A stretch of 64,000 nt of DNA from Nemertoderma westbladi. Its lineage: Eukaryota > Animalia > Xenacoelomorpha. The notes under the pieces were generated by a model. That model was given only the letters and a program-made list of their open reading frames with translations, ran no database searches and had not been told where the DNA came from. The stretch spans positions 29,754 through 93,753 of the forward strand of contig JAUCBJ010007765.1 in the NCBI GenBank assembly GCA_032718475.1. The letters are read 5' to 3'. Shown in pieces: positions 26,332-52,607 of the stretch; the first letter of the stretch is position 1, and the number at the start of each line of letters is the position of its first letter. A program made the translations under genes and the position numbers.

Positions 26332-29300
26332 GGTATGAATTACGGGTTTATAAACTCATTTAAATATTATTATAAATATGAATATGATTTTTTTTATATT
26401 TTAAGGCCTAATTTTTTTGTAATTATGTAATATTCTTTATGTAATATTAATTGCCTACTCTCTAATATAATTTGAGTAATATGATTTCTATGCTGACAAA
26501 CACACTAACTAAAAAGTATTATGTTGTAATTCAATCATTAACGCTGAAATAAGCAGACATTAATCCAAAATTAATTATGTCAATTATTATACTGAAATCA
26601 ATCAAACGCGCAATGCAATGAAATATCATAATAATGCCAACGCAATGGTAAATGGATGTTAATTTAAATGTTACACTTGGCATTCAATGATTTATTACAA
26701 CATTTCGCGATTGATAACAGTAGACATTTCCTTCGTTATGTATTCGCGTATCGTTCATCGTTATAGACCACCCAGTAGGCCTACTATAGTTAAACCTTCT
26801 ACGGACTTCCTATCCTAGGAGTTTGGCAATTCGCACGTCCATTAAAGCGTAGCGCTACGTATTACTGAAAATCCTATCCAATTTGCCTCCAACTAATAAA
26901 CCTTGTCAAGAAAGTTGAATTAAAATAATACTGTAAATGCAGTATCATATGTATTGTGTTTGCGAATTTCTGAACCGAAAATAACAACTCCTTTAGTTCC
27001 TACATCAGGTCCACCACCGGATTGCTTTAATTTAATTTGGCAACCAAATCAAAATCCATTCGATATCTCGAGCAGAAATATTTATAGTGTTTTCCATAAC
27101 AATACAGTAATGTAATGGTAACCGCAACAATACTGTACAGTAGGCCTAGAGTCTACGTAATTTCTTTATCGTGATTTACTCACAGCGGCTTTGATTCATG
27201 TTAAGAGATAGTATGAAAGCCTACTGTATTTGATATTGATATGATAAAATCACCATATCGGGAAATGTAAAGTAAATTACTACAAATACTACACTGTACT
27301 GTATAAGATAAATATAACTCATGATTTGCGTGTACTTTAATATCGGACCATAAGAATCGCGTAAGGTTCTCCTCTTGCAATTTAAATTCCAGTTTATAAA
27401 ACTTATTCTGCAGTTACAGTTTAGTCAATGGACTTCTTCCGGTAGAATATTATTTATACCTATAAAATAAAAGGTAATAACTATATACTGTATAGGCCTA
27501 TACGTCATTGTTCAGAAAGTAGCACATTATAGTGTTACGGCACGAGTGATCATAGAACGAGGGCCGGTGCAGATTGTTGTTATCCTACTGTACACTATAT
27601 CAAGTGTTTACAGGGTGCAACAAGCGCATGGCTTTCTTACCCTTTACTTACACATCATACAATACTTTTCAGTATCAGTACCAGTATTGAAATCGTGGCT
27701 GAGACTTGCAGTTACGGCAGTACGGTTACTTACTGATAGTCGCCTATTCCTATTTATTGCAAGATTGCAAGATAAGTTCAAGTTGTCTGGTTGTTGCCTA
27801 TTTAGACAACAATGATTCTATGTCAGTATGTGTTGCCAGTATAGGCATCACTGGCATCAGACAGTCAGAGCCGAAAAGTGTGCCCCCTAGCGCGGGTTTC
27901 CTGCTTATGTAAGTTGTAAGTTTTAATATTACAGTATTACAGGATGTACTGTACAGAAAAATAAAGTAGAAAAACAAGCATAACCGGTACAGTTAACAGT
28001 TCTACGTACAGTACTTTCTCAATTCATTCGCCATTTTTGCTGATTGGCAGATTGGGAAAATTATTTCTTTTTCCTACAGTTCATACTACTAAACACAATT
28101 TAGATTTTCTAAATTTTTTTCCAACCGTTTAGAAACTTTTCACAATGAACATTTTGAGAAAAATCCAAAAAGTGTCCTGAAAAGAAGGGATGTGTAACAC
28201 TTCCCAAGCATGAACACTTCATAAATCATAAATATTCAACCTTTTGTTTCTCCCTTACTGCCTTAGGGCCCTATACAGTTATAAGCTACCGGTACTGAGC
28301 TAGGCAAAGGTCAGTACAGCAGTAGGTTCATACTGTCATACAGTCATACTGATACCAGGATACTGTTGGATTTGCGATTTGCGTAAGAACTAGGGACTAA
28401 AGTGTCCGTTTATTGTTCTTCTGTTCTTTCTATGCCCTACTGCAATACTGCCTTCCAGCCTTATCCAGTTATCTGGCAGCCTTGCTTTAACAATTTTTGC
28501 TAATGACAGAATGAAGCTTTTGTTTTCGTCTTGGCACTTTAAAATTGTATAATCATGTAGGCGCTGAAACTGAAATCGTTTACTAGCATAGGCCTAGTTT
28601 AAGTTATCGGTATACTGTCAGACTGTCTGACTGTCAGTTTGCGATTTTACCTGTTGCGCTGTTGGTTTGTGTCTTTTGTTGTCGGTGGTACCCAGGCTGC
28701 CAGGTCAGCAGGTACCGTATGTAAATTGGAGAGATACGCCTATTCCTACTATCGGAAGAGACGGTAACAATACCTGCAATATCCTACTGTAAAGTTTGTA
28801 AATCAAATCATAAATCCGACCTTCTCACCAAAACAGTAAACCCCAAGTAAGCGAATATATTGCAGTATCGATCTCTTTTAACCGGTGAGGCAGAAAACAG
28901 TCTACGAGCAGACAAACTTCGATAAAACAAAATCCCGCGCAGCGAATCCTAAAATCAGGCTGACTCACTGACGGACTAAGAGGCTCGTATACTTTGCCGC
29001 GGTGTGATTTATATGGTTGGGCAAAGGGACGCTAGCTAGGTATAGAGCAGATTTGGAGATGTCTAACTAGCGAGCAAAGTGCAGTAAGGACGAAAGTTAA
29101 TTTTATATATTTCGAGGTGTAAATAATTTCTAACGCGCGTGTGTTAATTCTGAACGGTCAAAGCAGTTTTGCTCCTTCACATATATAATTACTGGGTACG
29201 GTGTGTATTTTACGAATATTCTAATTTTATAACTTGTAGGTCCAATACTCACGAATGGTAAGGTTCCTTCCCCTCTTGCGTATTTCCAGGACTCAAATTC

Positions 29301-30216
29301 AGGCATAAGGTTAATACTACGCCCAGAATTCGGCAATTTTAGGTACCAGGTCCCTGATACTAAGAAGAGATGTGTTAGTTTACTACGGTAGGCGTACGGG
29401 TACTAATAGCTATCCTGGCTCCTATCTAGAATTTTAGTCACCCAGGTAGTCCGGGTAACTTCCTATTAGGGCGTTGGCGGGGACACGGTAGATGTTAGTA
29501 TATCCCTGATAGCCTCAATTTATTTGCGCCTAGTGTAAACTGCCCTACCGCCTGAACGGTACAATCCCAATTCAGGTGAAAACACAGCAACCCCCTAGCC
29601 TACAAGTTCTGATGTAACGGACACCGTTGTACGGCAAATAGTCGCACACACACCTGTACTTAGCAAGAGTTAAGCGTACAGTTTGCTGCACCCTAACCAA
29701 TGTGTATGCCTTGTACCGGTGTGCCTACGTCCTATCTGCGTACTAGTATCTGCTCTCTCTCCCTCTCCCCCCGTAGGAATATGAAGGTCTACTGCGGTTT
29801 TTCCTGAATCAAGACAGTACAGTCCCTATGATGTAATTTTGGGCTTACAGCGTGTCACTACGTCTACCTTTTGATCTTTGGTCTTACACTTAGGTAGCAA
29901 GGATCGAACGCTGTCTAACCTTTCAGGCGATGGGCGAATAACTTTAAATGGTATTGCGGGTTGTCTCTCGTCTACATTCCCGTGATGTTCCCGTTCATTG
30001 CTGCGGCCCGATCTCTAGCTGGCCATCCTGTCCCTGAGTTTGTTCACCGTAGTGAAACCATATTAAAACAGATAGAAAAGGGCTGAGATGTGACTAGTAT
30101 TTCTGACTTTATTACAAAACATATAATAACTATTATACAATAAACAATGTAATCTGAAATAAGACAGAAAGCGAATGATGGAAATTGCAGTGAATAACTA
30201 ATGAACAAATCGCACC

Positions 30217-30224
30217 TTTATATA
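30217..30224 (-). promoter_or_regulatory. TATA-like box in the LTR (also 46836-46843); AATAAA at 30108-30113 / 46717-46722
   Basis: element strand reads GTATATAAAGG, with AATAAA ~105-115 nt downstream in both LTRs. Confidence 0.5.
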
Positions 30225-30421
30225 CTAAATTTGTGCTGCAATCAATCGAGAAAATTCTCGATTGTTCTATGGGTTCTAACAAGGTTTTAAAGATAGCTTA
30301 TTGGTCCAGCTAATATATAACTTGCACGACATTGGTTACAATCAAATAACTACAGCCTTATTGGTACAGATAAATGCAATTAATTTGTAGCGGTTAATTT
30401 AAATGAGTTGAAATTCTGCAC

Positions 30422-30508
30422 AAAAAATGATTCGCACTTACTAGGATTCGAACTCGATACCTACTACACATATAATTTCCAACGCTCTACCAACTGAGCT
30501 ACTGAACC
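30422..30508 (-). ncRNA. tRNA-derived Pol III unit in the 3' LTR (not a functional tRNA)
   Basis: A box TAGCTCAGTTGG with intact D stem GCTC/GAGC, B box GAGTTCGAATCC, TTTTTT terminator; anticodon and T stems degenerate. Confidence 0.7.
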
Positions 30509-30742
30509 ACTTGACCGATAGATGCATAATAGATAGAACCAATACTAATGAGAACTCAAAGCAATCTTTACAAAGTTAATTCGAATAAAATAAAATTTTG
30601 AAAATCCACGGCATTTAGGGAATATAATTCTATACCGCTCCATGAAAACAGGATATTATCGTGCATAAATATACGGTTTTCACCAATAATCAATCAAACT
30701 ATAGAATACTTAGGGCGTACTTACATATTTACAATTAAGTTT

Positions 30743-31121
30743 CAAACAATACTTCCTTTCTACGTAATGATTCGATACAAAATAATTACAAATTCAAACT
30801 TTACGTATTTAAGGCTTTACTAAGTAAGTACAATATAAATCTAAATTAAATTCACCAATATAAATCTATTGCATCTCAAATATTGCATAAATTCAAACAA
30901 TTACAAATACAAATAAATGAAAACAATGAAAACAAACAAACAATACTTCCTTTCTACGTAATGATTCGATACAAAATAATTACAAATTCAAACTTTACGT
31001 ATTTAAGGCTTTACTAAGTAAGTACAATATAAATCTAAATTAAATTCACCAATATAAATCTATTGCATCTCAAATATTGCATAAATTCAAACAATTACAA
31101 ATACAAATAAATGAAAACAAT
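30743..31121. repeat. 185-bp tandem duplication in the element's AT-rich 3' UTR
   Basis: 30743-30927 matches 30937-31121. Confidence 0.9.
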
Positions 31122-31736
31122 AAGAAAGGCTCGCAAGTCTTCCATCTACTATTGCATCTCAAATATTGCATAAATTCAAGTAATTACAAATACTTTCGTA
31201 CCTAAATGTAGATTGCATAGGTTTGGAATAATTACAAATATGAGTCTTTCTGAGCACAAAATTTTCTGTCTATAAAACTTTCTCTTTAGGTACAAATACT
31301 GCTTATAAAATGTAAATTGCATAATATTCGGAACAATATAAATTGCATAAGTTGGACTCTTTAGGTAAGTTCGGAATAATTACAAATATAAAATATAAAT
31401 TCTTACTAAATATAGATCTTACTAAATATAAGTCTTTACTTAAATATAAATATAGACTGCATAAGTTTAGAATAATATAAACCTTTGCATCTCAAATATG
31501 AAACATAAATCTTTCAAATATAAGTTCCTTCTAAATATAAACTTTCTAAATTTCATAAATTCGGAACAATACAAATTACATAAGTTTTGAATAAGCACAA
31601 ATATAAAATATAAGTTTTTACTAAATATGAGTCCCTTTCAGAATACAAAACTTTCTAAATATAAAACATATAATTCAAATAAATCACAAATCATAAGAAA
31701 GGCCCACGAGTCTTCCGTCCACCCTTGCCCTCCCTT

Positions 31737-34283
31737 TTATCGCTTAGTAGATCGAGCCCTGCCGCGTCCTCGAAAACTGCGCACAGGTGACTTTGCTCGC
31801 GATATGGGACTAATGGGGCGAGTCACTGGTTTACTTGGGACGTTAAGAGACGGTGCGACTATTTCCTCACAAATTCGTCTATTTGGCATCCCAAAACCTC
31901 GACCAATTCCTCGTGACCGATCAGTTGTCACTACAGTTGGTAGAACGTCTGGGAACGCGTGAGAAGCGGACGACGCAGACCCAAGAGTAGCTTGCGCCCC
32001 CTGTTGATCAGCTGGTGTATGTCCCGATCCTCCTACTGGTTCTCTTGGAAGTGATACCGTATCCCGAGTAACTCGAATAGTCGGCTCAACTCCCTTGCGT
32101 TCTTCTACATTAATAATTTTCTTCAATTGTTGGCCCACTTTCTGGACCCGTATGATCCTACCCTGCCCGTCCTCCCGAGGGTGACGTGCAGACGGCGCAA
32201 CCGGAGTGGCTGATATATTCGTCGCCTCTAGGACCTCTTCTTCCTCGAATACGCTCGCTCGTATACGTTTATGGTAAAACGCGGCTCGGTACGCCCATGC
32301 GACGGTTAACCAAGCTCCTTTATTCCGCTTTTCGGTTCGGAAACGATCAAATTCACCATACGTGATACGATTTACGACTTTCTGAAAATTCCACGTGTTT
32401 TTGTTATCCGGGTGAATCTGTAACAGATACTCGCGCACCACTCGAAATCCGCTGTCGTGGGGCAAAATATCGACAACCTCGATAAGTTCGTCATATTGAG
32501 GCATAGCGGAGATGTATCCTTCCGACATCATCGTTTGAGGATTTACCGCCCAAAATCCGAGATGCGCTCTCATCGGAAACCGTCTTCTCTGTGCCGATAC
32601 ATGTTCGTCGGCCAAATCTTCCCACTCATCAAATAACTTCCTCACGAGTTTAACAGATTCGTGTTCATAGGGTATGTCTCTTAGTTGGCATTCAGATGCT
32701 CGATGTCCCTTTATATTGCAGTAAGTACATTGAGCCATAAATCTCCAGCAAGTATAAAAGGTATGAGACCCTTGATCCCCACACCATCCACAGATTAGCT
32801 GAGTCGTAGTAATGTGCTTTCCACTGCACTTTGCCATATGATGTCCAGCGACGCCACATTTACTACACATCGTATTAGCAGGGTACCACACTCGTTCGTA
32901 TATAAGATCTCCAATCGGTCGAGCGCTTCCTCCCATACTATAATCGTAATCATCTGGGTCTATGGGTTGGTAGGTTTCTGAAGGTTGTATGCAAACTATA
33001 GCATCTGTTGCTTCAAGTTGTCGAATCTCCGTCTGAGATTTCTTCGGGAGGTTCCTTTCTATCTCAAGAAGTTCCTCTAAAGGATCGTCGGCGATCGTAG
33101 TAGTTACGTTGAAATCATCACCGAGGTGACCGATAGGCGCGCGCGTCTGCCGTGATTCATCCGTAATTTCCACAATACGTTCTCCTTCATAGGGTAACAA
33201 TGTAAACATAGATGGTCTTTCGATAAGAGATCCCGCACAGCGAAGATACACGTCTCGAAATATGCTAAATCCTGCTCGAGTAAAGGCATTACACTGAGCG
33301 TCGGAGTTGTAGAAGGGTTCAAGGAATCGTCTAAACACGTCGGTACGAATTCTCCCTTCCATGTAGAACGTATGATCTTCTCCGAGACAAAGTGGATGTC
33401 TTTTGAGAGTCCGAGACACAATGTCGGCGATTAGGCAAACATTCACTGACGACTCTATCGCTAAATAATATTGTAAGACCGCTCTTGGAGGTGACGTAAT
33501 AGCCCAATACACGCATCCTCTCCATTTAAGCTGTGATTCAAACTCACTCATATCTGGAGTATCACCTTCTCCATAAGTTTCAATATACTTGTTTCTTTTA
33601 CCTTCCTTATAATCCCAATTGAATAACAGGTAGGAAATGTATCCAGTTCCAGTCTTCTGAGTATTATACTCACGAAAATATCCCTGTTCTATAGACCACA
33701 GAATAAGAGGTCGAGTGTCGACGTATGGTGTCGGTAGTCGGTCATCGCTGTCCGTCATGCCGGCGAAGTCGCTAATTAGATCCTCCCTTACTCCTGATCC
33801 AACCTTTACAACAGTTTTATCTAAAATCATGTTTCTTACCATCTTCGGTAACATTCTAGCGTCAATATTACAAGCTTGGTCCATCTTCTTTACTATATCG
33901 GTGATAAGATGGTGTCGCTTTGTATTCGCTGGAGGTATCGGCATTCGTTTGTCGCTCCTCTGTCTACTGAAAACGTGCAGGACTCCGTCCGCCGCTCTAA
34001 TCTGTATAGTCTTAGAAGTCAAACTCTGCTGATGACTGCCGCCCTCGTTATCGTAAAACATATAACCGTTTTCCTGAAACGATCTAAACGTCCTAGTCCA
34101 TTCATCCAATAATTCTTCCGAAGGTTGCCAAATCTTCTCTATATCCTTATCCTCATCGAAACGAATAACCTTACCTCGCCAATCTGCGGCAATATCCGTA
34201 TCCGACTCGAAGGTTCCGATTCCAATCCATAAACGAATCGTCTTGGTTAGATATCCTTTCAGATTACTATGTCGGCACCAGCT
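31737..34283 (-). CDS. accessory ORF, C-terminal part: DEDDy 3'-5' exonuclease-like domain + 3 zinc knuckles + basic RS/RG-rich tail
   Basis: frame open from 34283; ExoI-like FYDNE, TIQI..GVLHVF, LPKMVRNMILDKTVVKVGSGVRED (ExoII-like), YVDT, W..SPPRAVLQYYLAIE (ExoIII-like, E in place of D); CSKCGVAGHHMAKC, CGWCGDQGSHTFYTC, CTYCNIKGHRASEC. Confidence 0.8.
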   Translation of the reverse strand, partial: SWCRHSNLKGYLTKTIRLWIGIGTFESDTDIAADWRGKVIRFDEDKDIEKIWQPSEELLDEWTRTFRSFQENGYMFYDNEGGSHQQSLTSKTIQIRAADGVLHVFSRQRSDKRMPIPPANTKRHHLITDIVKKMDQACNIDARMLPKMVRNMILDKTVVKVGSGVREDLISDFAGMTDSDDRLPTPYVDTRPLILWSIEQGYFREYNTQKTGTGYISYLLFNWDYKEGKRNKYIETYGEGDTPDMSEFESQLKWRGCVYWAITSPPRAVLQYYLAIESSVNVCLIADIVSRTLKRHPLCLGEDHTFYMEGRIRTDVFRRFLEPFYNSDAQCNAFTRAGFSIFRDVYLRCAGSLIERPSMFTLLPYEGERIVEITDESRQTRAPIGHLGDDFNVTTTIADDPLEELLEIERNLPKKSQTEIRQLEATDAIVCIQPSETYQPIDPDDYDYSMGGSARPIGDLIYERVWYPANTMCSKCGVAGHHMAKCSGKHITTTQLICGWCGDQGSHTFYTCWRFMAQCTYCNIKGHRASECQLRDIPYEHESVKLVRKLFDEWEDLADEHVSAQRRRFPMRAHLGFWAVNPQTMMSEGYISAMPQYDELIEVVDILPHDSGFRVVREYLLQIHPDNKNTWNFQKVVNRITYGEFDRFRTEKRNKGAWLTVAWAYRAAFYHKRIRASVFEEEEVLEATNISATPVAPSARHPREDGQGRIIRVQKVGQQLKKIINVEERKGVEPTIRVTRDTVSLPREPVGGSGHTPADQQGAQATLGSASSASHAFPDVLPTVVTTDRSRGIGRGFGMPNRRICEEIVAPSLNVPSKPVTRPISPISRAKSPVRSFRGRGRARSTKR

Positions 34284-35455
34284 CTATCCAGTTCCTTAAA
34301 ATCTTGGATATGAGGTGGAACGTTGTTCACGACCTTTTGAGTAATATGTCTACGCAAATCATATATCTTACTCATATCGCTGAAAACAACTGCAGGAAGA
34401 AACTCCAAGTTTGAAATGATTTCTGGATGATCCACGATGGGTATTTCGTACGTCGTATCCTGTCGGACTGGTATACTAATAGGGAAATTGAGTGTCGTAC
34501 TCAATGGTTTCGTAACTGAAGTACTATACGATTGCATTTCTCTTGGCCTCTCCGGGGATGCAATCTGTAGTCTCTGAATAACGTTTTGAGCGAAGTTTAT
34601 GCTCTCGAAAACTTCCGGTGTCATCTCCTTAGCTGAAGTTTGATCGTGTGACGTCCAATGGCAAGGTAGGCTCGCGAGTCTTCCACCCCATTCTTCCATC
34701 TCACCTTTCTCGAAAGCCTTGTAGGCTCTGTATAGGCTAAGAGCTTCTTTCTTTTCGCGGGTTGACTGATTCGCCTCGTCCAGCGTAAGTTCAAATACAT
34801 CGGGTTCAACAACCTTAGGTGGGTAAATGACAGTTTCTCCCGCCTTTGGTCCGGTCATAGCAAATGAGTGATATGGATTCGATAAAGGATACCCTCCTTC
34901 CTGGTAGCGTAGTTGTTGATGATTCGAACACCTCGCCAATATCGGTTCGGGATTTTCCTTATTCAAACGCATCGGAATCGCATTTCGTTGTTCGCGCATA
35001 CAAGAACCGCATTGATAATAAAGTTTATAAACTGAAAATGCTTCCTTGGTTTCTCTATCGTCCCCTCGAGTTCGTCTGTAAAGATGCATTCCATCGAATT
35101 CATCGCGTACCGCGGGCATAGGTTCATGCGCCTTTAGGTATTGCATGGTATGATACAAACGACTAATTTCAGTATCGGGGTCTTCGCTAATGTCTCCCGT
35201 ATCACACAAAGCATCGTACGGGTAAAGTTCATTGAAGGTTTGGCGCAAACTTTCGATTCTTTCGTTCAATGCGTTTTGCCTTCTCTTTAATACGTTCGAG
35301 TCATATTTAGTTCTCGCGAGTTTCGCTGTACTTTCCGATAATTCTTTTATACCAAATATAGTATAATCCTTGGCTCCAAATCTTTCGAATGGCGCTGCTG
35401 CCTCCTCTTGGATATCATATCCCCATCTCGGCTCTCCTTGTATCCCTTTCTCCAT
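34259..35455 (-). CDS. accessory ORF, N-terminal part (398 aa), joined to the next ORF by a -1 shift
   Basis: true ATG start; overlaps the downstream frame at 34259-34283; coiled-coil-like segment and a CGSC..CSNH motif; function unknown. Confidence 0.75.
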   Translation of the reverse strand: MEKGIQGEPRWGYDIQEEAAAPFERFGAKDYTIFGIKELSESTAKLARTKYDSNVLKRRQNALNERIESLRQTFNELYPYDALCDTGDISEDPDTEISRLYHTMQYLKAHEPMPAVRDEFDGMHLYRRTRGDDRETKEAFSVYKLYYQCGSCMREQRNAIPMRLNKENPEPILARCSNHQQLRYQEGGYPLSNPYHSFAMTGPKAGETVIYPPKVVEPDVFELTLDEANQSTREKKEALSLYRAYKAFEKGEMEEWGGRLASLPCHWTSHDQTSAKEMTPEVFESINFAQNVIQRLQIASPERPREMQSYSTSVTKPLSTTLNFPISIPVRQDTTYEIPIVDHPEIISNLEFLPAVVFSDMSKIYDLRRHITQKVVNNVPPHIQDFKELDRAGADIVI

Positions 35456-36115
35456 AATTAGGGTGTAGTTACATAATCATTACTACTAGAGGGAATACAA
35501 CAGAGTTTGTAGTTAGTTGTGAGGAGACGTGAGAGTTTCGTCTGCCCTTTGGGCTTCGACAACGCTCTAACCTCCTACCCATAGCCTAAGATCTAGGGTT
35601 TCTTTAATGACACGCTGCTTCTTATCTAAAATTTTTTGCCGAAATAAAAACGAATTTGGGCTAAACTGGCCGTGAGTCTAAAATACTCACTTTTTGATCC
35701 CAAACTATTATCAGAAAATAAGCAATCAAGAATTAGTAATAAATATAGGGGAGTCTATTTATTTGCGTAACTTATTGAAACAAGACCGTGTAAAATTTAA
35801 TTAAAATTTTAAGAAAGGCTCGCAAGTCTTCCTCTCTTGTTTCTCTAATTTTAAGTTCCACCCGACTGTACCCTGAAATCTATTCACTGGAGAAATTTTT
35901 AAAAATTTTCAAATCCAAATGGATTGTCTAAAATTTCGAAAATGTCTCAATATTGTGAGTTCCAAGTAGAATTCCATTTCTTATACCTACAAATCCCGCT
36001 CCTATGTGACACATAAGGGTACTACCCTCAATGTTCACATATAAAGACAATGGAATTCTACCGCTGTCCTTAATACGGTGTACAGGTACGTGGAAATCTA
36101 TTTGTAAACTCCTAA

Positions 36116-39100
36116 TTATTTACTAGTATTAGGTGGAGATTTGTAGTCTCCAGACTCGTTACGAGTCTCTTCAAGAAGTACGAGACGTTGAGTCGGTCTG
36201 TCTACTGTACGACCGTCAATTGTTCGTACCGTCACAGTTCTTGTCACTCCATCCATAGATGGATGTGTGGCTAAAATGACACCTGTTATCCAGAAGCGTC
36301 TTTTCAGATTCACTTCTGCCAACAGCACGTGGTCTCCCGGCTTTAATGCGCGGGTGTTATTGTACCAGTTTGTTCTGGCAGAAATAGAGGGCAAATAATG
36401 GTTTTGCCATATTTCCCAGAATTTGTTAGCCAGTAGTTGCGTGATTTTCCACGCTTTTCTACCGTAGCTATCGCTTTCCATTGGAATGGAAAGCGGCGTC
36501 AAAGTCGTCGGTGCCTGCATTAGCAGGTGTGCCGGTGTCAAAGCAAACTGAGATTGTTTGTCATCGGGTACTAATACTATTGGTCTAGTATTTAGTATTG
36601 CCTCGATTTCAACAAACAATGTTGTCAGTTGGTCGTCTGTTAATATGTGGTTTACTGGAATGACCTTTGCCATTGCTGTCTTTATAGATCTAATCAGTCT
36701 CTCCCAGACTCCGCCTCTCCAAGGACTATCTGGAGGATTGAACTTCCAAACAATCTTGTGAGGTTGCAGTTCGTTCGAGATTTGATCATGATCTAATTTC
36801 TTAAAGGCTCTAGCAATCTCATTCCGAGCACCAACGAAGTTTGTCCCTTGGTCTGAGTACAAGCATTTTACTAGTCCGCGTCTAGCGATAAATCGCCGCA
36901 GTGCTAGTATAAACGCGTTGGTGGAAAGATCCATCACACGTTCAATGTGAACTGCCCTACTGGACATACATGTGAAAATCAGTCCCCAGCGTTTTACTAG
37001 TATACGTCCACGTTTAGTATGTATGGGACCAAAGCAATCAATTCCAGTCTCTGTAAAAGGTGGTCTGAATGCTTGAAGTCGTGCTTGTGGTAGTTCACTC
37101 ATTTCTTGGGTACCTATTCTAGAATGTACCTTTTTACAAATAATACACGTACGTGTCACTGAACTTAATGCTTTACTGGGTCTAATTAATACAAATCTAG
37201 TACGTAAGTAGGAAAGACAGTGGTGTCTTCCAGCGTGTTTCAGATGTAGATGTGCGTCCAGTATCATTGCACGTTGTAGTTCGTGATGTTGCGGTATTAT
37301 TATTGGGTACCTAAAGTTCGTGTTAAAGTCAATGTTTTGAAGCCGAGATTTATGACAAATTAAGCCATTATAAATAATCGGACTCCAACTCAGTATCGGT
37401 GACGACTTGATTGGTTGACCTTGATTTATAGATGTGAATTCGCGCGCGAAATATCGCAGTTGGTAATGGCGAATTAATTTAATCTCACACCTGTCAATCT
37501 CAGCCAATGTAAGTCGACGTGTGAAGTCACGTTTGCCTTTAACGTATTGTACAAAACGTACAATCCACGCTAATTTTCGGCAAGCGTTTGACCAAGAATC
37601 TGTTAGGTTTACAATACGGTCGACATAAGTATTTGTGACGTCATCAGGTAAGTCAATGGAGAACTTGGAAGGTTTCGAATTACTAGAAGGGCCCACGGGT
37701 CCGCCGGTAAGTATTCCCTTGTTGACTGTTGATCCGTCCGGGTCTACAAGTAATTTGTCCTTCTTTGTCTTCTTACCTTGATTGTCGGTACTTTGTAAGT
37801 CGATCGTTAATGGTGGTTTGAACTCTATGGGGTCAGCAGGTTTCGGTAAACTTATTTTTCTGCCGACATTAATCCCAGGTCTCACCACAGGTTGTAAGTT
37901 CGGTATGTCTCTTGAGCGCAAAGTAACACCTGTATTTACATTAGCGTAGGTACTACCCACATCTGCAATACATGAGGTTTCACCATGCTTATGGTTGTCC
38001 AAGTGTGTCAAAATTGGTAGTTTGTCAATACAAGGCCGCTCCAATAGGGAAACTGCGGCTTTATTGTTAGTCAATACATTACTAGTGTCTAGTCGACTGT
38101 CTAGTAGTGTGTCTGGCGATACGTCTGGTAACGTATCTGGTTGTTTGTCAATAGAAGGCCGCTCCAATAGGGAAACTGCGGCTTTACTGTTTGTCAGTGC
38201 GTTACTAACGTCTGGTGGAACATTTTGTGATATGTCTGGCAAAATGTCTGGTTGACTGTCTAGTAACGTGTCTGGTTGACCGTCTGGCGATATGTCTGGT
38301 CGACCGTCTGGCGATATGTCTGGTGTAGAAAGGCTCGCAAGTCTTCCTCTCTTGACCTTTGAAGTTATATCCTTCCATTTCGCCTTCGGTTTTTTCTTGA
38401 GTTTCGCCGCTGTCGTCCTTTTCTTTGTCTTCCCCTTTTTTGGTTTCTTGATTTCGGCGTCCTTAGGAATGGTGTTGGATTTGTTGTCGTATAACGGAGG
38501 CCAATCTTGTGTCGATTTCTGCAAGAACTGGGGTCCGTGTTGCCAAAACTCTTTGTTCTCCGGTTTACAGAATTCCTCAGGCATCATTCCTCGCGACGCA
38601 ATATCAGCTGGGTTTTGTGGTCCTGGACAATGTCGCCAATCTTCTTTTATCGAACGGTCTAGAATTTCCGCGCGACGGTTAGCTACGAATGTCTTGAATT
38701 CGAGAGTGTCGTTGTTTATGTAAAATAAAACTAACGTCGCGTCAGTCCAATAAAATATCTGTAAACTCGACTGTAGTTCTGTCTGTATGAGGTTCACGAT
38801 GGTGGTTGACAGGGTCGCGGCTTGTAGCTCGGCTCGTGGTGTCGTCATGTACTTAGTAGGCATGGTCTTAGCCTTGGAAGTAATGAGCGAAACATCGAAC
38901 TCGTCTGATTCTACTTGTCTGCGCAAATACGCTGCCACACCAAACCCGTTGTCACTGGCGTCAGAAAAACAGTGTAGTTCCAAGTTGTCAGGAAATGTAC
39001 TCTGTAATGGAAAGTAAACCCTGGGTATGGAATAATCCTCTAACGAAGACAATTCCGCCTCCCAGGTCTTCCATAAGTCCACTTGATCTGATGAGATCGG

Positions 39101-42100
39101 CTCGTCCCACGTTAGTCCATCCTTCCAGATACTGCGCATATAAATGCGAGCTTGCAGTATTACTGGACTGATGAATCCTAACGGGTCGAACAATCGGCTC
39201 AACTTTGACAAGCATGATCTCTTGGTCAGTGTGTCTCCTTGACTGTCCAGTCTCACCTTCACTCGAAAGTTGTCTGTGTTTGGGTCCCAAAAGAGCCCCA
39301 ACACCTTAGTCGTCGGTAGTGGTTCGAACTCTAGGTCTATATCACCACCTCCACGCTCAGTAGTTCCGAATGAGTCAACTAATTCGGCACTGTTTGAGGC
39401 GAATTTGGTGAGGTTAAAACCTCCGCCCGCCAAGCAGTCCCGTAATTGATGTGCTACTGTTGTAGCACGTTCTACTGTGTCGCAACTCTGTAATCCGTCG
39501 TCAACGTAAAAGTCACGTTCTACAATTCTAACTATCTCTGGGTCATACAGATGTTTCTGATCTCTAGCGGCTTGCTTCAAGGCGTACATCGTACAATTCG
39601 GGCTGTCTCTGGCACCGAAAACGCGAACTTGCATTTGGTAAGTCGCTGGTGGTAGACTTAAGTCCCCTTCCGGATACCAGAGAAACCGCAAACTGTCTCT
39701 GTCTCGCTCTAACGCTTTCACTTGGTGAAACATCGCTTCTACGTCGCAAGTAAAGGCTACTTGACGCTGACGGAAGCGCATAATCACCCCCATAAGATAG
39801 TTATTCATGTTCGGTCCATCCATCAATTCACTATTGAGGGACATTCCCTCAAACAGAGCCGCACAGTCATTGACTACGCGTACTTTATCTGGTTTGTCGG
39901 GATGTCTCACATAGTGATGTGGCAAGTAGTACGTCTGGTCTGTCACTCGCTCCGGGTTAGTCATTCGGATAGCGTATCCCTTCGTCAAATACGTCTCCAT
40001 CTGAGTGTTATACTGCAGATGGGCTTTCTCGTCCTTTAATAGACGTTGTCGGATTGAGTGTAGACGTCTTAAAGCCAGTGGGTAGTTATTTATAAGTTTA
40101 GGACTTTGGCTACGCCATAACATACCCACCTCGTAATGTCCGTCCTCCGTCTGTCGGATAGTATCCTCCATGATCTTTAGAGATTGTTTCTCCTGTTCCG
40201 ACATACAAGGGTCGTAGCTACCAGGTTCAGCTGTATCTTGTTCTAACCACCTGATAGTCTTCTCCGTTAATTCTTTGTCCAAGGCGGCTTGTTCCAACTG
40301 ATGAGTTTTCAACGCGTCATCGTCGATATCGACGGGCACTGTTGAGGTTATTGGGGTAGGTAGACTCGCAAGCCTATCATCTGTCGTCGATGGAATCTCT
40401 AGCTGACTCATCTTCTCCCCAATTTCTAAACTCACCTTGTGGGTTAGCTGCTCCTTGTGACTTATCATACTAGTTACACGTCTGTCATGTTTTGTCAACT
40501 GTAGCGTAGTATGGTTCACGTCGTGTGAAAAGGAATGAATTGAGTTTGTAGTCAATAAACTACATGTACTCTGTACGTCGTCTTCCTCGTCACTTACGTC
40601 CAGTGTGCGCACAGGCGCTCGAGTATACCACCCTATCGGCGTTCTGCAGGCGTATGCGTTTCCTGCTACAACTGCCGATGGTCTGGTTTCCCACACCTGA
40701 TGTAGGTTGAATTGGTCCGTCCTGATCAGCATTGCTACCGATCTATAATTGACGGGACATTCGGGTACACCAAGGTGTCTGAAATACTTACGGTCCTCCA
40801 GAGATTGTTCCGGCACTGGACCTAGTAGGTTACTAAAGTCCTTCGTGGCCGCAAAGGTTAGATCTCTAAAGGGCAACAAAGACCTCTCCCTCTCGCTGTG
40901 TTGCGATTTTGGAAGAAGAGAGTCTAAGTCCAACTTAACTCGTGTCACTGGTATTGCACGCTGGCCGTGCATACTACTTACTGTATAACTGACGTGTTTA
41001 CCTTGTCTGAGATCCGTTACGACGTCAGCGATCTTTTCATCCACGTAACTGTGAGATGAGGCTGAATCTAGAATCGCGTAGATCCTCTTACTCCCCTTTG
41101 TGCCAGTAACTTTAATCGGGATTACACTAAATCCCTTCAGTTGGTCAGTGGTCAGGAGCGCGATTGACGGTTGTTCGTCTCCATTAGAATATTCGTCGTC
41201 GTCTGATTCTTCGTCCGACGATCCGGATTGTTCCGAAAAGCAATCCTCTATATGGGTCACGAAAGTCGGAGTCGTTTTCGATTCCCGTTTTCGGTAAGCC
41301 GCATCACATCTCGCTGCTGCTTCCGGGTGTTCCCTGGCGAAGCGTTTCGTCGGCGTGTGGCTGTCTGTGTGGAGCAGACCGTCGTGGTTGCGTCCACAGG
41401 ATGGACAAGTGTCGGTATTCGGGCAATCCTTGCGGACGTGTCCGTGTTGCGTACACCGCCAACAAGAGTCCAGTGGCCGTATCTGCAGCCGTCGTTCTTC
41501 TGAGTTCAACTCGCGAAATTGTCGACAACCCCGTAACTTGTGACCAATATACCGCTTACCTAAATGTTCGCAGTATTGGCAGCCGTTGAAGTCGGCGCTG
41601 AGTTGCTGTCTCGTCTGTTTTGTCCCAATGGGCGCAGATACTCTATTACCGTCTGAGAATTGTCGTGATTCCGTCGGTGTGGCGTAAGTGGCCGTCTTTG
41701 TGGATGTTGTCTGGGGTTTTTGTCGGTTTGAAGAGGATGGCAGTGTGATCCCTTCTGCCACGATGTGCTGGTCGGTATAGTTAGATCGAGTCTCTACTAC
41801 CGCCTCCCTGGATATTAAAAGGTACACATCTTCTAATTTTAGGAATCCTCCTCGCTCCTCTCGCTGATATTCGACCTTCCTCCACTCCCGACGAAGTCGA
41901 TGGTGGAGTCGTCCTATTATCTTTAATAGGACTGTAGGCGTATTCCCGTAATCAAGTTGTCCAATTGATCTTAAGGTAGTGATAGCGTTCTTAATCTCGT
42001 CGGCCAGTTTTAGTAAGTCGACAGGTTTAGTGATAGCCCCTCCCTTACAGAGTTCTTCTATTACTGACCTGGCCATACTCACTGTACCTCCGTATATCGA

Positions 42101-42712
42101 AGTCAAACGATCGTACGCTAGTTCGAAAGCGTCTGGTACACCGACGAAAGTCTCCGCCAAACGTTTAGGTTCTCCTGACAACGTTTGGAGCAAGTAATTG
42201 AACTTCTCTCGTGATGTAAAGGCGCACACGGCGATCTGGGATTCGATATAGTCTACGAAGGTATGCCAGTGTTTTGAGCTACCGGAGAACTTCGGTGGTT
42301 GTTGTACCGGCAATCCCTGTCTGGCTGCGAATTTCGCTATCTCCTCGGCAACGTTCAGAGTTTCGCGTCCTTGGTTGGTAACCTGGTTGATGTTCTCCCT
42401 TCTAGGCGCTTTTCCCTGATACGATGTGGGGTTTGAAGGTACCGGTCTTTGTGGTCCCTTCGGGTGTCTATTGTGTTCGAATTCGGAATTTCTCGAACTG
42501 TCGGTGTAACCTTCCTCCAGACGTTCCTCGATCTGAGCCAACTTATTGACAACTGGTCGCAGAATGTCGGCGAACTGTTGTGTACTAATTGCGTCCGTTG
42601 GTTGTAACGCCTTCTGTGTTGGTGTATTCTGTGGAGGATTGTCTGCAAAGGAGTTGTCTGAACTGGCCTTGTAGGTCGAAACGTCATTGGGTAAGCGTAA
42701 TGTGTAACGGGT
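36116..42712 (-). CDS. pol: BEL/Pao Gag C-terminal part and Pol polyprotein
   Basis: frame open from 42712; PPKFSG..EKFNYLLQTLSGEP (DUF1759), CQYC/CWRC..H..C/CPSC..H..LLH, ILDSAS protease, DVEAMFHQV and FYVDD RT, HCFSDAS RNase H, H..H..CIIC, IDCFGP, SDQGTNF and GVWERL integrase. Confidence 0.95.
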   Translation of the reverse strand, partial: TRYTLRLPNDVSTYKASSDNSFADNPPQNTPTQKALQPTDAISTQQFADILRPVVNKLAQIEERLEEGYTDSSRNSEFEHNRHPKGPQRPVPSNPTSYQGKAPRRENINQVTNQGRETLNVAEEIAKFAARQGLPVQQPPKFSGSSKHWHTFVDYIESQIAVCAFTSREKFNYLLQTLSGEPKRLAETFVGVPDAFELAYDRLTSIYGGTVSMARSVIEELCKGGAITKPVDLLKLADEIKNAITTLRSIGQLDYGNTPTVLLKIIGRLHHRLRREWRKVEYQREERGGFLKLEDVYLLISREAVVETRSNYTDQHIVAEGITLPSSSNRQKPQTTSTKTATYATPTESRQFSDGNRVSAPIGTKQTRQQLSADFNGCQYCEHLGKRYIGHKLRGCRQFRELNSEERRLQIRPLDSCWRCTQHGHVRKDCPNTDTCPSCGRNHDGLLHTDSHTPTKRFAREHPEAAARCDAAYRKRESKTTPTFVTHIEDCFSEQSGSSDEESDDDEYSNGDEQPSIALLTTDQLKGFSVIPIKVTGTKGSKRIYAILDSASSHSYVDEKIADVVTDLRQGKHVSYTVSSMHGQRAIPVTRVKLDLDSLLPKSQHSERERSLLPFRDLTFAATKDFSNLLGPVPEQSLEDRKYFRHLGVPECPVNYRSVAMLIRTDQFNLHQVWETRPSAVVAGNAYACRTPIGWYTRAPVRTLDVSDEEDDVQSTCSLLTTNSIHSFSHDVNHTTLQLTKHDRRVTSMISHKEQLTHKVSLEIGEKMSQLEIPSTTDDRLASLPTPITSTVPVDIDDDALKTHQLEQAALDKELTEKTIRWLEQDTAEPGSYDPCMSEQEKQSLKIMEDTIRQTEDGHYEVGMLWRSQSPKLINNYPLALRRLHSIRQRLLKDEKAHLQYNTQMETYLTKGYAIRMTNPERVTDQTYYLPHHYVRHPDKPDKVRVVNDCAALFEGMSLNSELMDGPNMNNYLMGVIMRFRQRQVAFTCDVEAMFHQVKALERDRDSLRFLWYPEGDLSLPPATYQMQVRVFGARDSPNCTMYALKQAARDQKHLYDPEIVRIVERDFYVDDGLQSCDTVERATTVAHQLRDCLAGGGFNLTKFASNSAELVDSFGTTERGGGDIDLEFEPLPTTKVLGLFWDPNTDNFRVKVRLDSQGDTLTKRSCLSKLSRLFDPLGFISPVILQARIYMRSIWKDGLTWDEPISSDQVDLWKTWEAELSSLEDYSIPRVYFPLQSTFPDNLELHCFSDASDNGFGVAAYLRRQVESDEFDVSLITSKAKTMPTKYMTTPRAELQAATLSTTIVNLIQTELQSSLQIFYWTDATLVLFYINNDTLEFKTFVANRRAEILDRSIKEDWRHCPGPQNPADIASRGMMPEEFCKPENKEFWQHGPQFLQKSTQDWPPLYDNKSNTIPKDAEIKKPKKGKTKKRTTAAKLKKKPKAKWKDITSKVKRGRLASLSTPDISPDGRPDISPDGQPDTLLDSQPDILPDISQNVPPDVSNALTNSKAAVSLLERPSIDKQPDTLPDVSPDTLLDSRLDTSNVLTNNKAAVSLLERPCIDKLPILTHLDNHKHGETSCIADVGSTYANVNTGVTLRSRDIPNLQPVVRPGINVGRKISLPKPADPIEFKPPLTIDLQSTDNQGKKTKKDKLLVDPDGSTVNKGILTGGPVGPSSNSKPSKFSIDLPDDVTNTYVDRIVNLTDSWSNACRKLAWIVRFVQYVKGKRDFTRRLTLAEIDRCEIKLIRHYQLRYFAREFTSINQGQPIKSSPILSWSPIIYNGLICHKSRLQNIDFNTNFRYPIIIPQHHELQRAMILDAHLHLKHAGRHHCLSYLRTRFVLIRPSKALSSVTRTCIICKKVHSRIGTQEMSELPQARLQAFRPPFTETGIDCFGPIHTKRGRILVKRWGLIFTCMSSRAVHIERVMDLSTNAFILALRRFIARRGLVKCLYSDQGTNFVGARNEIARAFKKLDHDQISNELQPHKIVWKFNPPDSPWRGGVWERLIRSIKTAMAKVIPVNHILTDDQLTTLFVEIEAILNTRPIVLVPDDKQSQFALTPAHLLMQAPTTLTPLSIPMESDSYGRKAWKITQLLANKFWEIWQNHYLPSISARTNWYNNTRALKPGDHVLLAEVNLKRRFWITGVILATHPSMDGVTRTVTVRTIDGRTVDRPTQRLVLLEETRNESGDYKSPPNTSK

Positions 42713-44511
42713 TTAGGCGTCAAAGGTGGACTCACCTGTTTTGTCGTCAGTAGCGCAGGTCCGGTCAATAAACTACTACGATCTGTAATCGGTGGGTTAC
42801 TTACCTTGACTCTCGGAATAGGCGACGACGTTGCTCTTGGCGGTATAAACTCGTTCGGAATAACAAACCTGTGTTCCGTCGCACCATGGATAGGAGAAAT
42901 ATCACTACTACCCGCAATCGAAACAGGTTCCTTAGTCGTAACCGGTGCAAACATATGAGTTACCTGTGGGAATCGTTGACACACGTCTTTTACTAATTGT
43001 CGTTCCCGTCCGGGTGCTCCTACGCTTCCTTCCTTCTTCCGTTCCTGAATTTGGCGATGTCTTACCTCTAACTGGTCCAAATCATGTCCGTCGCGAGATC
43101 TCATCGATCTATCGCGGGCTAGAAGATCCAGATTTTCCTTAGTTTCGGCTAATTCTCTCGCCCTCTTCTCAAGTTCGAAACGAAGTTTAACCTCCTTTTC
43201 TCGTTGTTCCGTTTGTTGTTGTTGCGCCTCGAACTCTGCTTGTCGTATCGCTTGTTGGGCTTTTATTTGCCGTGTCTTCATCTCGACTCTGGCTTCCGAA
43301 ACTACTCTTTGTCGCTCTAACTCTGCCGCAGCCGTTTGTCGCTCTAACTCTGCCGCAGCCGTTTGTCGCTCTAACTCGGCCGCTGCCGTTTGTCGCTCTA
43401 ACTCGGCCGCTGCCGTTTGTCGCTCTAACTCGGCCGCTGCAGCTGCCGTTTGTCGCTCTAACTCGGCTGTTGCCGTTCGTTGCGCTAACTCGGCCGTTGC
43501 CGCTTGTTGGGCAATGTCCAACTCTAACCTTTCCATTTCGGCCGCTTCGAGTTCGGCTTGTTCCTGCAGATGAGAGATTCTCGCTACATTTGCAACACGT
43601 ATTTTCTCTTCCTCTACTGCTGTTTGTATCATTAGAAGTTGAGCTTGTTCTTCTATCTCGTGTTGCTGTCTGTAGAACTGCTGCTGTTGTCGAGCAACTT
43701 CTGACGTGACTATACTTCCTTCGCAGATTTCGCTACGAATACTTACCAATGATTGATTTAGTATTCCCGGTGCCGATTCGATTTGTGTGAATGAAGTTTC
43801 CCTCGTGTATTCCGGCTCGGTTTCCAAATCGCCGACGTCTTCGCCGCACATGCGTAAGTGGTCCGTCAGATGTTTCAATTGTCCATCCAGTCGGTACAAT
43901 TCCTGTTCTTCCTCGGGTTGTAATAATTCGTCCGAAACTGACTCACCTAACAACTGGTCCGCTTGTTCCTGTTGTATCTGTCTAATCGTCGACTTAAACT
44001 GAATCAGTTTCTCTCTAGTGATCATTAGTTTCTCGAGGATTCTAAGTTGAGTATCCATGTCCTGTCTCTGTCTAGCTAGATCTTGTAGGCCAACTAGATT
44101 ATCTACGGACTTATATACTTTACTCTGTACTCTAACCTGGAGGGTGTAGAACTCGAATCGAGACATCGGAGCGGTCAACCCGTCTAATATGCGTTGGCCT
44201 TCTCCAATACTCCTGGTTATATGCGCCATGTAACCTCCGACGCTTCTAACCACACTTTCCTGGCTTCCTGCTGAACTTACCATGTCCGTTTCCCTGTATC
44301 TAGGTTGCGGAACAGTTAGAAAGTCCTCGGTCCTGCCGTCGCCTCGTACTACGGCATCCGGTACTCCCGTTGGATGTACTGGTGACGCACACGGTGTAGG
44401 TTCGGTAGGCTTGCGAGTCTTCCTCTGTTGTTCTTCCGCTGCTGACTTATCTCCGTCACACGAGTCATAGTCGGTTTGTGTATTCTTCGTATAGTCTTGT
44501 TTGTCACTCAT
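42355..44511 (-). CDS. gag: BEL/Pao Gag N-terminal region (coiled coil)
   Basis: ATG start, 718 codons, E/Q/R-rich coiled coil; overlaps the pol frame by 358 nt in a -1 relationship. Confidence 0.85.
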   Translation of the reverse strand: MSDKQDYTKNTQTDYDSCDGDKSAAEEQQRKTRKPTEPTPCASPVHPTGVPDAVVRGDGRTEDFLTVPQPRYRETDMVSSAGSQESVVRSVGGYMAHITRSIGEGQRILDGLTAPMSRFEFYTLQVRVQSKVYKSVDNLVGLQDLARQRQDMDTQLRILEKLMITREKLIQFKSTIRQIQQEQADQLLGESVSDELLQPEEEQELYRLDGQLKHLTDHLRMCGEDVGDLETEPEYTRETSFTQIESAPGILNQSLVSIRSEICEGSIVTSEVARQQQQFYRQQHEIEEQAQLLMIQTAVEEEKIRVANVARISHLQEQAELEAAEMERLELDIAQQAATAELAQRTATAELERQTAAAAAELERQTAAAELERQTAAAELERQTAAAELERQTAAAELERQRVVSEARVEMKTRQIKAQQAIRQAEFEAQQQQTEQREKEVKLRFELEKRARELAETKENLDLLARDRSMRSRDGHDLDQLEVRHRQIQERKKEGSVGAPGRERQLVKDVCQRFPQVTHMFAPVTTKEPVSIAGSSDISPIHGATEHRFVIPNEFIPPRATSSPIPRVKVSNPPITDRSSLLTGPALLTTKQVSPPLTPKPVTHYAYPMTFRPTRPVQTTPLQTILHRIHQHRRRYNQRTQLVHNSSPTFCDQLSISWLRSRNVWRKVTPTVREIPNSNTIDTRRDHKDRYLQTPHRIREKRLEGRTSTRLPTKDAKL
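43308..43505 (-). repeat. 27-bp coding tandem repeat (AAAELERQT)n in gag
   Basis: gccgtttgtcgctctaactc(t/g)gccgc(a/t) repeated ~6-7 times. Confidence 0.9.
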
Positions 44512-44593
44512 TTCGGTAGTTGTAAGTCAAGTGAAGTGAGTGTCAAAGTATCGAGTTTACCGTATTTGTATAAGACGGTACTAATTACAGTCA

Positions 44594-44718
44594 TATAAAA
44601 TTAGCCTACCGGCCGATTTTATAGCAGATGGATAAAATTAGCCTAAACGGCCAATTTTACAACAAATTAATGTCACGGAGTAAGTATATAATAAAATTAG
44701 CCTAGCGGCCAATTTTAT
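44594..44718 (-). other. three repeated hairpins in the 5' leader
   Basis: ATAAAAT(T/C)GGCC-loop-GGCTAATTTTAT x3, with G-U pairs only on the element strand. Confidence 0.7.
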
Positions 44719-45321
44719 AACAAATAAATCGGATAACGATATGCGTTATCAAAAGGTAAATTAAATACAATAATACGGACTAATTCAGCAATGAACAAAG
44801 AAATCATACGGAATGCATAAATACTTGAGACAGTGGAACCCACAATAATTTTAACTAATACGGTAATGCCTAACTTATTTATGCAACTTTTCGAACTCAC
44901 CCACTCCAATAATTCTCCAGAAAAACAGATTCCCAGATACAAACCGGACGTGAACCTTTCCGTTTTTAACGTTGCGGACGAAACGCGATTTTCCCAACCA
45001 AAGTTGTTGAGTTATCTATCTCCCAAACTTGATAAACACGGTCTTGCTCCCGTTACAGTCTAGAAAATGAGTTCTGAATCCTGAAAAACAAAAGAGTTAG
45101 GTTTTACTTTACGAAAAATTTTGTACCGGTACAATATGGTATTTAAACCCTTTTAAACACCGGTATTCAATTCCAAAAATATTTTACACGCGGTTCAAAT
45201 CAAATTTTATTTCAAAAAATTAGCACTTAGCTAATCAAAATACAAAATTTTACCTCAAAATACAAAATTTTCAAATAACTTTAGTCCTACCGAACCGTAG
45301 TTCAGTAAAACATATTCCTAC

Positions 45322-51920: not shown

Positions 51921-52607
51921 ACACGTTCGTGGGACCTTCGCGCAGCACGAGGCCCAGTTATGAGATACAAATTAAAATCGAGCGACTGTATCACAAAATC
52001 AGTTTTTAACTTTATAAATTAGTTAAATTTAGAAATTTAACCACATCGCCAATCAATCAAAGAAAGAGGGACAGTACGTGTTCAGTCCTTTTAATTTGCA
52101 CCCCCCCCCCCCCCCCCCCCCACCCTTCCCACCCACCAATACATAACCGCGACATCTACCACCCACGGAAGGGTAGCACGAACTTATTTCCAATCGCACG
52201 TTCAATATGCGAAGCCAGGTGGTTTATAGGAATATAATCAACGCAGTGCTAAATACAGTCGATGCAGTAATGAATGATATTCAAATAATTTATTTAATAT
52301 ACTGTTAATGCCTCTGAAAACTTAGACAATTAAAATACACAGAAATCCCATCAAAAAATAATATGCCTAATATTTTGAGAAATAAACAATTTTGGATATA
52401 AGCCTTCTGCAGTGGTAATGTTATTGACTGACAATCATTAAATGAGATCTGTCTATTACCTGAGACTAAAGAACACAGACTCTATAGTGTAATAGGAGGT
52501 AGGGAATGCAGGTTTCAATCTCGTTAGGTCTAGCTGGCCAATCTCTCTACCAGCCGTGTGGCTAGTTACATACCCCCCCTCCACTGGCATTCCCAGCAAC
52601 TGGCTGC
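51921..52607. repeat. ~685-bp direct repeat, copy 1
   Basis: near-identical to 55008-55690. Confidence 0.92.

Follow-up and report, generated by a model that had tools for sequence, protein, structure and literature searches.

A third gene with a predicted DEDDy-like exonuclease domain and zinc knuckles in a BEL/Pao retrotransposon of Nemertoderma westbladi

Retroelements that encode a 3′-5′ exonuclease of the DEDDy type have been described in bdelloid rotifers, where such third open reading frames (ORF3s) are present in the long terminal repeat (LTR) retrotransposons Juno and Vesta and in the Athena/Terminon retroelements (PMC5408684; ORFs of this type are also treated in PMC6431247, PMC5718144 and PMC6338049). 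These bdelloid ORF3s are RNase D-like, occupy the position of env, have no transmembrane segment, show one D-to-E replacement and are of unknown function. Here, we describe an ORF3 in a BEL/Pao element of Nemertoderma westbladi (Xenacoelomorpha), contained in 64,000 nucleotides (nt) of contig JAUCBJ010007765.1 (assembly GCA_032718475.1, positions 29,754 to 93,753 of the forward strand), a stretch that we call the window and to which all coordinates refer. The gene lies at 35455-31737 on the minus strand, between pol and the 3′ repeat, and an earlier note on this DNA, made from its letters, had already pointed to the bdelloid precedent. By description, the features just listed are common to both, the exonuclease and the D-to-E replacement being predicted for the present gene, whereas the carrier is here a BEL/Pao element and the gene has ~1240 codons, three zinc knuckles and long unknown regions.

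Other described systems share part of this architecture. The trypanosome RNase D, TbRND (PDB 7c42-7c47), combines a DEDDy exonuclease with four CCHC fingers, binds and trims RNA, and uses the fingers to grip the RNA upstream of the trimmed end, a combination that has been termed very unusual (PMC7797062). A run of CCHC fingers likewise follows the predicted exonuclease of ORF3, although TbRND is a cellular mitochondrial enzyme of ~375 residues whose fingers lie close behind the nuclease, while the gap in ORF3 is ~180 residues; the structural match between both is middling (Z 5.9) and there is no sequence similarity. With EXD2, WRN-exo, Mut-7/Nibbler, EXD1 and Egalitarian (the PF01612 group), ORF3 shares the KVG.G...D ExoII motif and the order of the motifs, and EXD2 is its top structural match. 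By contrast, identity to this group is ~13-20%, there are insertions of 30-50 residues, YxxxE stands for YxxxD and all profile cut-offs are missed. The BEL/Pao elements (Belpaoviridae), which occur with or without env (PMC3118150), have the same set and order of gag-pol domains, and the position and likely splicing of ORF3 parallel those of env; however, ORF3 is enzyme-like and no glycoprotein, the element exceeds twice the median size and its nearest pol relatives are only ~44% identical. Finally, the Dada DNA transposons also encode a DEDDy exonuclease, although inside a DDE transposase, where it has been proposed to process DNA ends (PMC3706591).

We found no BEL/Pao element with an exonuclease ORF in the literature, Repbase, Dfam and subscription journals being outside this search, and the word “exonuclease” is absent from the main text of the BEL/Pao survey (PMC3118150) and of an annelid survey. 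What the locus adds is the extension of DEDDy capture to a further retroelement superfamily, BEL/Pao, as DEDDy ORF3s themselves are already known. The reading that we favour is that ORF3 is a selected gene, expressed from a spliced message, whose exonuclease would trim RNA 3′ ends and thereby shield the element from host RNA surveillance. To this chain, taken as a whole, we assign a probability of roughly 0.45.

The gene, its copies and its likely message

In the window, ORF3 is formed by two stop-free minus-strand frames, 35476-34259 (405 codons, first ATG at 35455) and 34283-31737 (848 codons; residue numbers such as D78 and E80 count within this frame), which overlap by 25 nt, an overlap that the earlier note had reported. 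Other copies of the family were followed in four sequencing runs of one organism, X1 to X4, which come from three studies and contain 64-75% of the sampled words of the region; a fifth run, X5 (organism B, 0.21 of the words, depth below 10), was not counted as a second host, and no run with the region is listed as RNA. The contigs of X1, X2 and X3 placed on 31200-45300 cover ORF3 throughout, and likewise gag and pol, which speaks against a one-off capture. In all four runs, and hence in all three studies, a short indel relative to the window is found at the overlap, the sole indel listed in 911 bases, and its length fits the frame offset. Therefore, the family has one ORF3 of ~1240 codons, the single accessory gene suspected in the earlier note, and it is the window copy that is broken. 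As the indel accounts for all of the depth in X1 but only for ~20-40% of the counted depth in X2-X4, with many short contigs ending there, the break may be common to some copies. A programmed frameshift at the overlap was rejected, since other copies differ there by an indel. The break in gag is of the same kind, because loose ends at 42663 in X1, X2 and X3 indicate that other copies differ there too. Among the copies, subfamilies at about 83-85% identity can be recognised.

The differences between copies indicate selection on the protein. Within the exonuclease region (33420-34330), 29 of 39 listed differences (the best 40 of 80, less one inside the overlap) are silent, against 29% expected from the transition/transversion mix (P = 4e-9), and the region's protein is consequently under purifying selection; 26 of the 39 fall at third positions. 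A wider comparison took the best 40 of 767 differences. Among the best-supported differences, 12 of 17 are silent in ORF3, 10 of 13 in pol and 5 of 7 in the first ORF3 frame. All these figures count sites without a codon model, and the best-supported rows are biased toward old differences, yet the silent excess is large. The 39 listed differences alter the codons of E80 and D168 only silently and leave D78, Y273 and E277, as well as Y237 and D241, unchanged. Additionally, for the diverged contigs of X1, alignment is confined to 33994-34076 (ExoI) and 33423-33545 (ExoIII). Anatomy and selection, taken together, are the part of the reading that we hold with most confidence.

The carrier is a BEL/Pao LTR retrotransposon, since Peptidase_A17, DUF1759 and DUF5641 are all above the Pfam cut-off in the polyprotein upstream of ORF3, where the domain order is protease, reverse transcriptase (RT), RNase H and integrase. 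Of 7980 proteins scored against the RT-RNase H region, 1452 match at E<=1e-30, with ~44% identity for the best, and the named relatives are mostly from marine invertebrates (corals, mussels, sea urchins). Judging from these matches, the lineage appears to be without close relatives in the protein database searched. When pol was used to seek relatives with flanking DNA, viral contigs gave none and metagenomes a single short distant contig; ARAGORN and Rfam gave no match inside the element. The features of the element, 5′ to 3′ on its coding strand, are the following:

45322-47254, minus: 5′ direct repeat, likely a partial LTR plus a 5′ leader of ~1.3 kb that would start at TGG 46668.
44900..44901, minus: splice donor GG/GTGAGT in the 5′ leader, upstream of the gag ATG, from the 35485/44901 joint of one X1 contig.
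42355..44511, minus: N-terminal part of gag (ATG at 44511), coiled-coil-like with tandem repeats, cut off from the remaining gag-pol by the break in the window copy.
36116..42712, minus: remaining gag and pol by Pfam, with DUF1759, knuckles, protease, RT, RNase H (Peptidase_A17), low-complexity insert, integrase and DUF5641.
35486..35510, minus: CTAAC branch-point-like motif, pyrimidine tract and AG acceptor, 30 nt before the ORF3 ATG (contig joint and sequence).
34259..35455, minus: first frame of ORF3, 398 residues, with no domain recognised by Pfam or NCBIfam and one CxxC...C..H motif.
34259..34283, minus: overlap of 25 nt, the frame break of the window copy (indel in four of four runs).
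33399..34121, minus: predicted DEDDy-like 3′-5′ exonuclease domain, with candidate acids D78, E80, D168 and E277 and with Y273 (motifs, alignment, model, selection).
32688..32867, minus: three CCHC zinc knuckles (sequence and sub-threshold Pfam scores).
31737..31826, minus: short R/S-rich C-terminal tail and stop.
31722..31738, minus: purine tract with a TG behind it, immediately following the ORF3 stop, a candidate polypurine tract and true start of the 3′ LTR.
28722..30635, minus: 3′ direct repeat, 97.7% identical to the 5′ repeat.

Two further observations concern pol and its surroundings. An insert of ~300 low-complexity residues lies at the RNase H/integrase boundary (~38500-37600, minus), with a lysine-rich stretch followed by PD-rich 12-nt repeats. 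A 20-nt motif that forms a weak hairpin (-3.2 kcal/mol) occurs at four minus-strand sites (38346, 35831, 31715, 31142), each behind a purine-rich run, and 28 nt of this motif region are identical between pol and the pol-ORF3 spacer.

Env genes use a spliced RNA from which gag-pol is skipped, and for ORF3, too, a message of this kind was likely made. One X1 contig joins 44901 to 35485 and omits 9415 nt which, on the coding strand, start with GTGAGT after GG and end with the CTAAC branch-like motif, a pyrimidine tract and AG. This acceptor lies 30 nt before the ORF3 ATG, with only a two-codon upstream frame in between. GT..AG ends are expected by chance in 0.4% of joints and are present in 2 of the 15 joints shown (41 were found); in the second of these, five additional letters separate the two sides and a splice-like context is missing. 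The join is a single contig, with 30 letters on its short side, from a run listed as “DNA?”, and it represents a spliced message if X1 is RNA or a reverse-transcribed copy if it is DNA. Toward the 3′ end and toward the tract richest in A (38449), the depth of X1 climbs, as would be expected of an oligo-dT library; this was not counted as evidence, since regions cannot be ranked by contig depth and the deletion derivatives act as a confounder. Separately, X1 has a loose end at 45082, at the position of a second acceptor-like site (45081), that matches the window just upstream of the donor-like site 46526 (minus), which suggests that 46526/45081 may be a first leader intron.

The bdelloid elements differ in this respect: for their enzymatic ORF3s, Rodriguez et al. 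2017 (PMC5408684) gives no significant departure from neutrality, and that work left the function of the exonuclease ORF3 open, with activity not shown, while purifying selection and a spliced join are found here. With its strong selection, its probable spliced message, its numerous copies and the deletion derivatives found in nature, the family makes the function of ORF3 a testable question.

The predicted exonuclease domain and the knuckles

The motif series described in the earlier note was recovered in full, with every motif in its place and order: FYDNE (34058), IQI (34007), GVLHVF (33986), LPKMVR (33851), ILDKTVVKVGSGVRED (33827), YVDT (33725), WAITSPP (33506) and QYYLAIE (33473). The candidate acids are D78 (34052), E80 (34046), D168 (33782) and E277 (33455), accompanied by Y273 (33467). 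The series appears to exceed chance, because an ordered six-block DEDDy score, centred on invariant columns of the reference proteins (bacterial EXD2-like proteins, NrnC and RNase D) with the query known beforehand, reaches 42.0, against a mean of 8.6 +/- 5.1 and a maximum of 26.3 in 300 shuffles; five other ORFs of the window score 0.6-11.6. This score recovers four motifs of the earlier note and puts ExoI and ExoIII elsewhere. In a MAFFT alignment with the references, D78, E80, Q94, K160 and D168 fall on invariant columns and, by both alignment and block score, the DxE of ExoI and the D of ExoII are present in order and spacing.

Other comparisons point to the same fold. For residues 40-380, 24 of 30 ESM Atlas matches belong to clusters with PF01612 in 50% of their members (score 0.92, 163 shared features), although scores of at least 0.9 are also reached by 4-10 in 100 shuffled proteins. 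The only NCBIfam match is the DnaQ model PRK06309.1 (E 0.029, residues 74-137). An AlphaFold model guided by reference rows, essentially over the N-terminal core only, has a mean predicted local distance difference test score (pLDDT) of 58.5, with the core mostly at 70-88; its order of strands and helices matches DEDD, and a long unguided helix (278-295) is aligned with the last helix of DEDD enzymes. With this model, Foldseek ranked EXD2 first (E 1e-3) and VIA-align returned DEDD-type domains throughout its top rows (EXD2: Z 9.0, root-mean-square deviation 6.1, 120 aligned), matches that show compatibility with DEDD only; a viral fold library gave no match at E<=0.001. Altogether, we consider a DEDD fold in ORF3 quite likely. 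The DEDDy-like domain with three knuckles announced in the earlier note is thus upheld by motifs, block score and Atlas, the fold tests being indirect or partly circular. Of the profile and structure comparisons that the note had in mind, those with PF01612 gave no match and those with zf-CCHC stayed below threshold, while Atlas, the weak DnaQ match and Foldseek on the guided model returned DEDD.

For the fourth acid there are three ExoIII candidates: E277 (with Y273), D241 (with Y237, at canonical spacing and the choice of MAFFT) and D287. The best score, although a weak one, is that of a K-x6-W plus Y register at 253/270, which gives Y273xxxE277; the guided model has D241 within a G/P-rich loop. 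We regard E277 as the most likely fourth acid, giving the set D-E-D-E in agreement with the earlier note, where the last acid was read as E rather than D, because the ExoIII aspartates of Klenow, DnaQ and mouse WRN (which we take to be residues 501, 167 and 210) map to residues 276, 275 and 279, adjoining E277, when the VIA-align range ends are extended with no gap assumed in the last helix. By analogy, an E at this position need not imply loss of activity, since the last acid is also an E in DDE integrases, which have the same fold. The bdelloid DEDDy ORF3s argue in the same direction: they are DEED, with D replaced by E, and are described as intact (PMC5408684). Judged from its sequence, ORF3 is probably an active nuclease.

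Several results weigh against our reading, in addition to the choice of differences behind the silent counts, the shuffled Atlas scores and the single contig behind the splice join. PF01612 has no Pfam match at E<=10, below its family cut-off; hhalign against a DEDDy alignment gives a probability of 5.4%; and, of four local hidden Markov models, all with scores near zero, one put the ORF above 500 of 500 shuffles by 0.4 bit and another gave no match. Single-sequence AlphaFold, without guidance, reaches a pLDDT of 31, and the guided model, whose guidance makes its core circular, drops under 50 across residues 203-279, Y273 included. ExoIII scored weakly, with Y237/D241 and D287 as rivals. No homologue of ORF3 was found among 1.84 billion representatives (searched with residues 1-470; the ORF3 family itself is absent there), in word searches (the 848-residue frame, and the domain against longer proteins) or in PDB sequences. 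Furthermore, deletion joints at 33178/35296 and 33290/35316, in three runs, take out the exonuclease region together with most of the first frame, and the knuckles are kept. Phage records and metagenome contigs held no relatives of ORF3, and its first frame has no usable ESM Atlas match and no Pfam or NCBIfam family.

Downstream of the predicted exonuclease, the three knuckles that the earlier note had located lie at 32867-32688, two of the form CX2CX4HX4C and one CX2CX5HX4C, with sub-threshold Pfam zf-CCHC scores (E 0.011 and 0.0037). The RS/RG-rich tail is present but modest, its final 29 residues containing 8 R and 5 S. A hydropathy scan, the only method applied here, found no signal peptide or transmembrane segment (best 19-residue windows 1.07 and 1.38), in agreement with the earlier note, and ORF3 is not env, though it occupies the env position.

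Possible function and competing explanations

A third gene in the env position, read as one frame in other copies, is multi-copy and under selection. In the mechanism that we propose, its protein would be expressed from the spliced RNA that omits gag-pol, as the join in one contig suggests, and is predicted to adopt a very diverged DEDD fold in which D78, E80, D168 and E277 bind two metals. By analogy with trypanosome RNase D, the knuckles may bind single-stranded RNA and pass its 3′ end on to the nuclease, and ORF3 would be a second case of this exonuclease-plus-knuckle design. The protein would then have its targets in trans, in silencing small RNAs or inhibitory 3′ tails, and would not serve core replication. 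We favour action in trans because the ORF3 protein is produced separately from Gag-Pol and because such a gene is absent from most BEL/Pao elements, which replicate nonetheless; granted activity, a counter-surveillance role seems to us somewhat the better guess. If the substrate were a PIWI-interacting RNA (piRNA) or a 3′ tail, ORF3 would give an animal transposon an enzymatic counter-defence of its own. It is doubtful that env was replaced by an active small-RNA-trimming exonuclease, spliced env-style, that suppresses piRNA or 3′-tail surveillance and so enables a high copy number.

An active exonuclease might instead work inside the replication cycle, packaged through its knuckles and trimming the primer, the RNA 3′ end or cDNA overhangs. 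The resemblance of CCHC knuckles to nucleocapsid speaks for this, as does purifying selection on ORF3 that matches pol in strength; the ends of the repeats show no clear TG..CA and no obvious primer site, and processing of element RNA 3′ ends has been proposed in PMC5408684. Nevertheless, ORF3 is encoded apart from Gag-Pol with its own acceptor, PF01612 is found in none of 120 listed pol relatives (where a separate ORF would not show) and copies with the domain deleted exist. We regard a role in replication as unlikely.

A weak or dead DEDD fold could also serve as an RNA-binding adaptor, as in EXD1 or Egalitarian, for instance to move element RNA to the germ line, and the earlier note leaned toward such a pseudo-nuclease. 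The E for D in ExoIII and the long insertions between motifs would suit an adaptor, and Egalitarian (Z 6.7) and EXD1 (Z 6.5) are among the structural matches. EXD1, however, lacks several of the acids, while all four acidic positions of ORF3 are filled, with none of the 39 listed differences altering them, and nucleotide conservation in the diverged contigs peaks at ExoI and ExoIII. As retroelement DEDDy ORFs with D-to-E swaps are, besides, described as intact (PMC5408684), the leaning of the note is not borne out and an adaptor appears rather improbable.

The motif resemblance might be fortuitous and ORF3 a selected protein of some other fold, as the failure of profiles and sequences to match any DEDD family significantly, together with the shuffled proteins in the Atlas, would allow. 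Yet Atlas, the NCBIfam DnaQ match and the ordered-motif score, none of which uses the fold model, agree on DEDD, and the order of strands and helices fits it; we consider this alternative improbable. Lastly, a single capture of a host gene that is now decaying, or a pair of separate genes, could account for a window copy broken in ORF3 and gag and for an indel missing from some contigs, but is largely refuted by the multiple copies, subfamilies ~83-85% identical, strong silent excess, lack of introns and dedicated splice acceptor.

Ends of the element and other features of the window

The direct repeats are 1.9 kb long, and their outer span is 18,533 nt (28722-47254). As the repeat ends of the window copy have neither TG..CA nor a target-site duplication, the true LTR ends and the size of the element are uncertain, and the repeat ends are probably not LTR ends. 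On the minus strand, a TATA at 46843, an AATAAA at 46722 and the TGG at 46668 are found ~410, ~530 and ~590 nt inside the repeat, with the donor-like site further on; the TGG motif and the purine tract at 31738-31722 are, by sequence, primer-site and polypurine candidates. We infer that the true LTR may run from ~31721 to ~30061, the repeats being a tandem junction that includes leader DNA, and that a period of 16.6 kb would correspond to a full unit of ~18.3 kb. In a survey of BEL/Pao elements the median size was 7.4 kb, with maxima of 16-22.8 kb (PMC3118150, file S9), and a bar of 20 kb of internal region has been used for giant elements (PMC6431247). The “giant” 18.5-kb element of the earlier note is thus large, at the top of the surveyed range, but the term is overstated, as the size is within that range and below the 20-kb bar. 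Both repeats also contain a tRNA-like stretch with A-box and B-box (47128-47050 and 30509-30431, minus), ~230 nt upstream of the TATA and nowhere else in the window, for which ARAGORN and Rfam give no call; it is possibly an RNA polymerase III promoter or an insulator in U3.

Elsewhere in the window, a second gag-pol frame, Ty3/Gypsy-like, occupies 59829-63998 (minus) and is open at the window end, while a frame of 566 codons at 24655-26355 (minus), with only weak coiled-coil-type Pfam scores, is possibly a retroelement ORF1. A tandem array with units of 57-59 nt extends over 4300-7600, with an inverted copy at 3990-4076. Finally, a direct repeat of 690 nt (51921-52607 and 55008-55690), 97.8% identical and 3.1 kb apart with no long ORF in between, is possibly a small non-autonomous LTR element.

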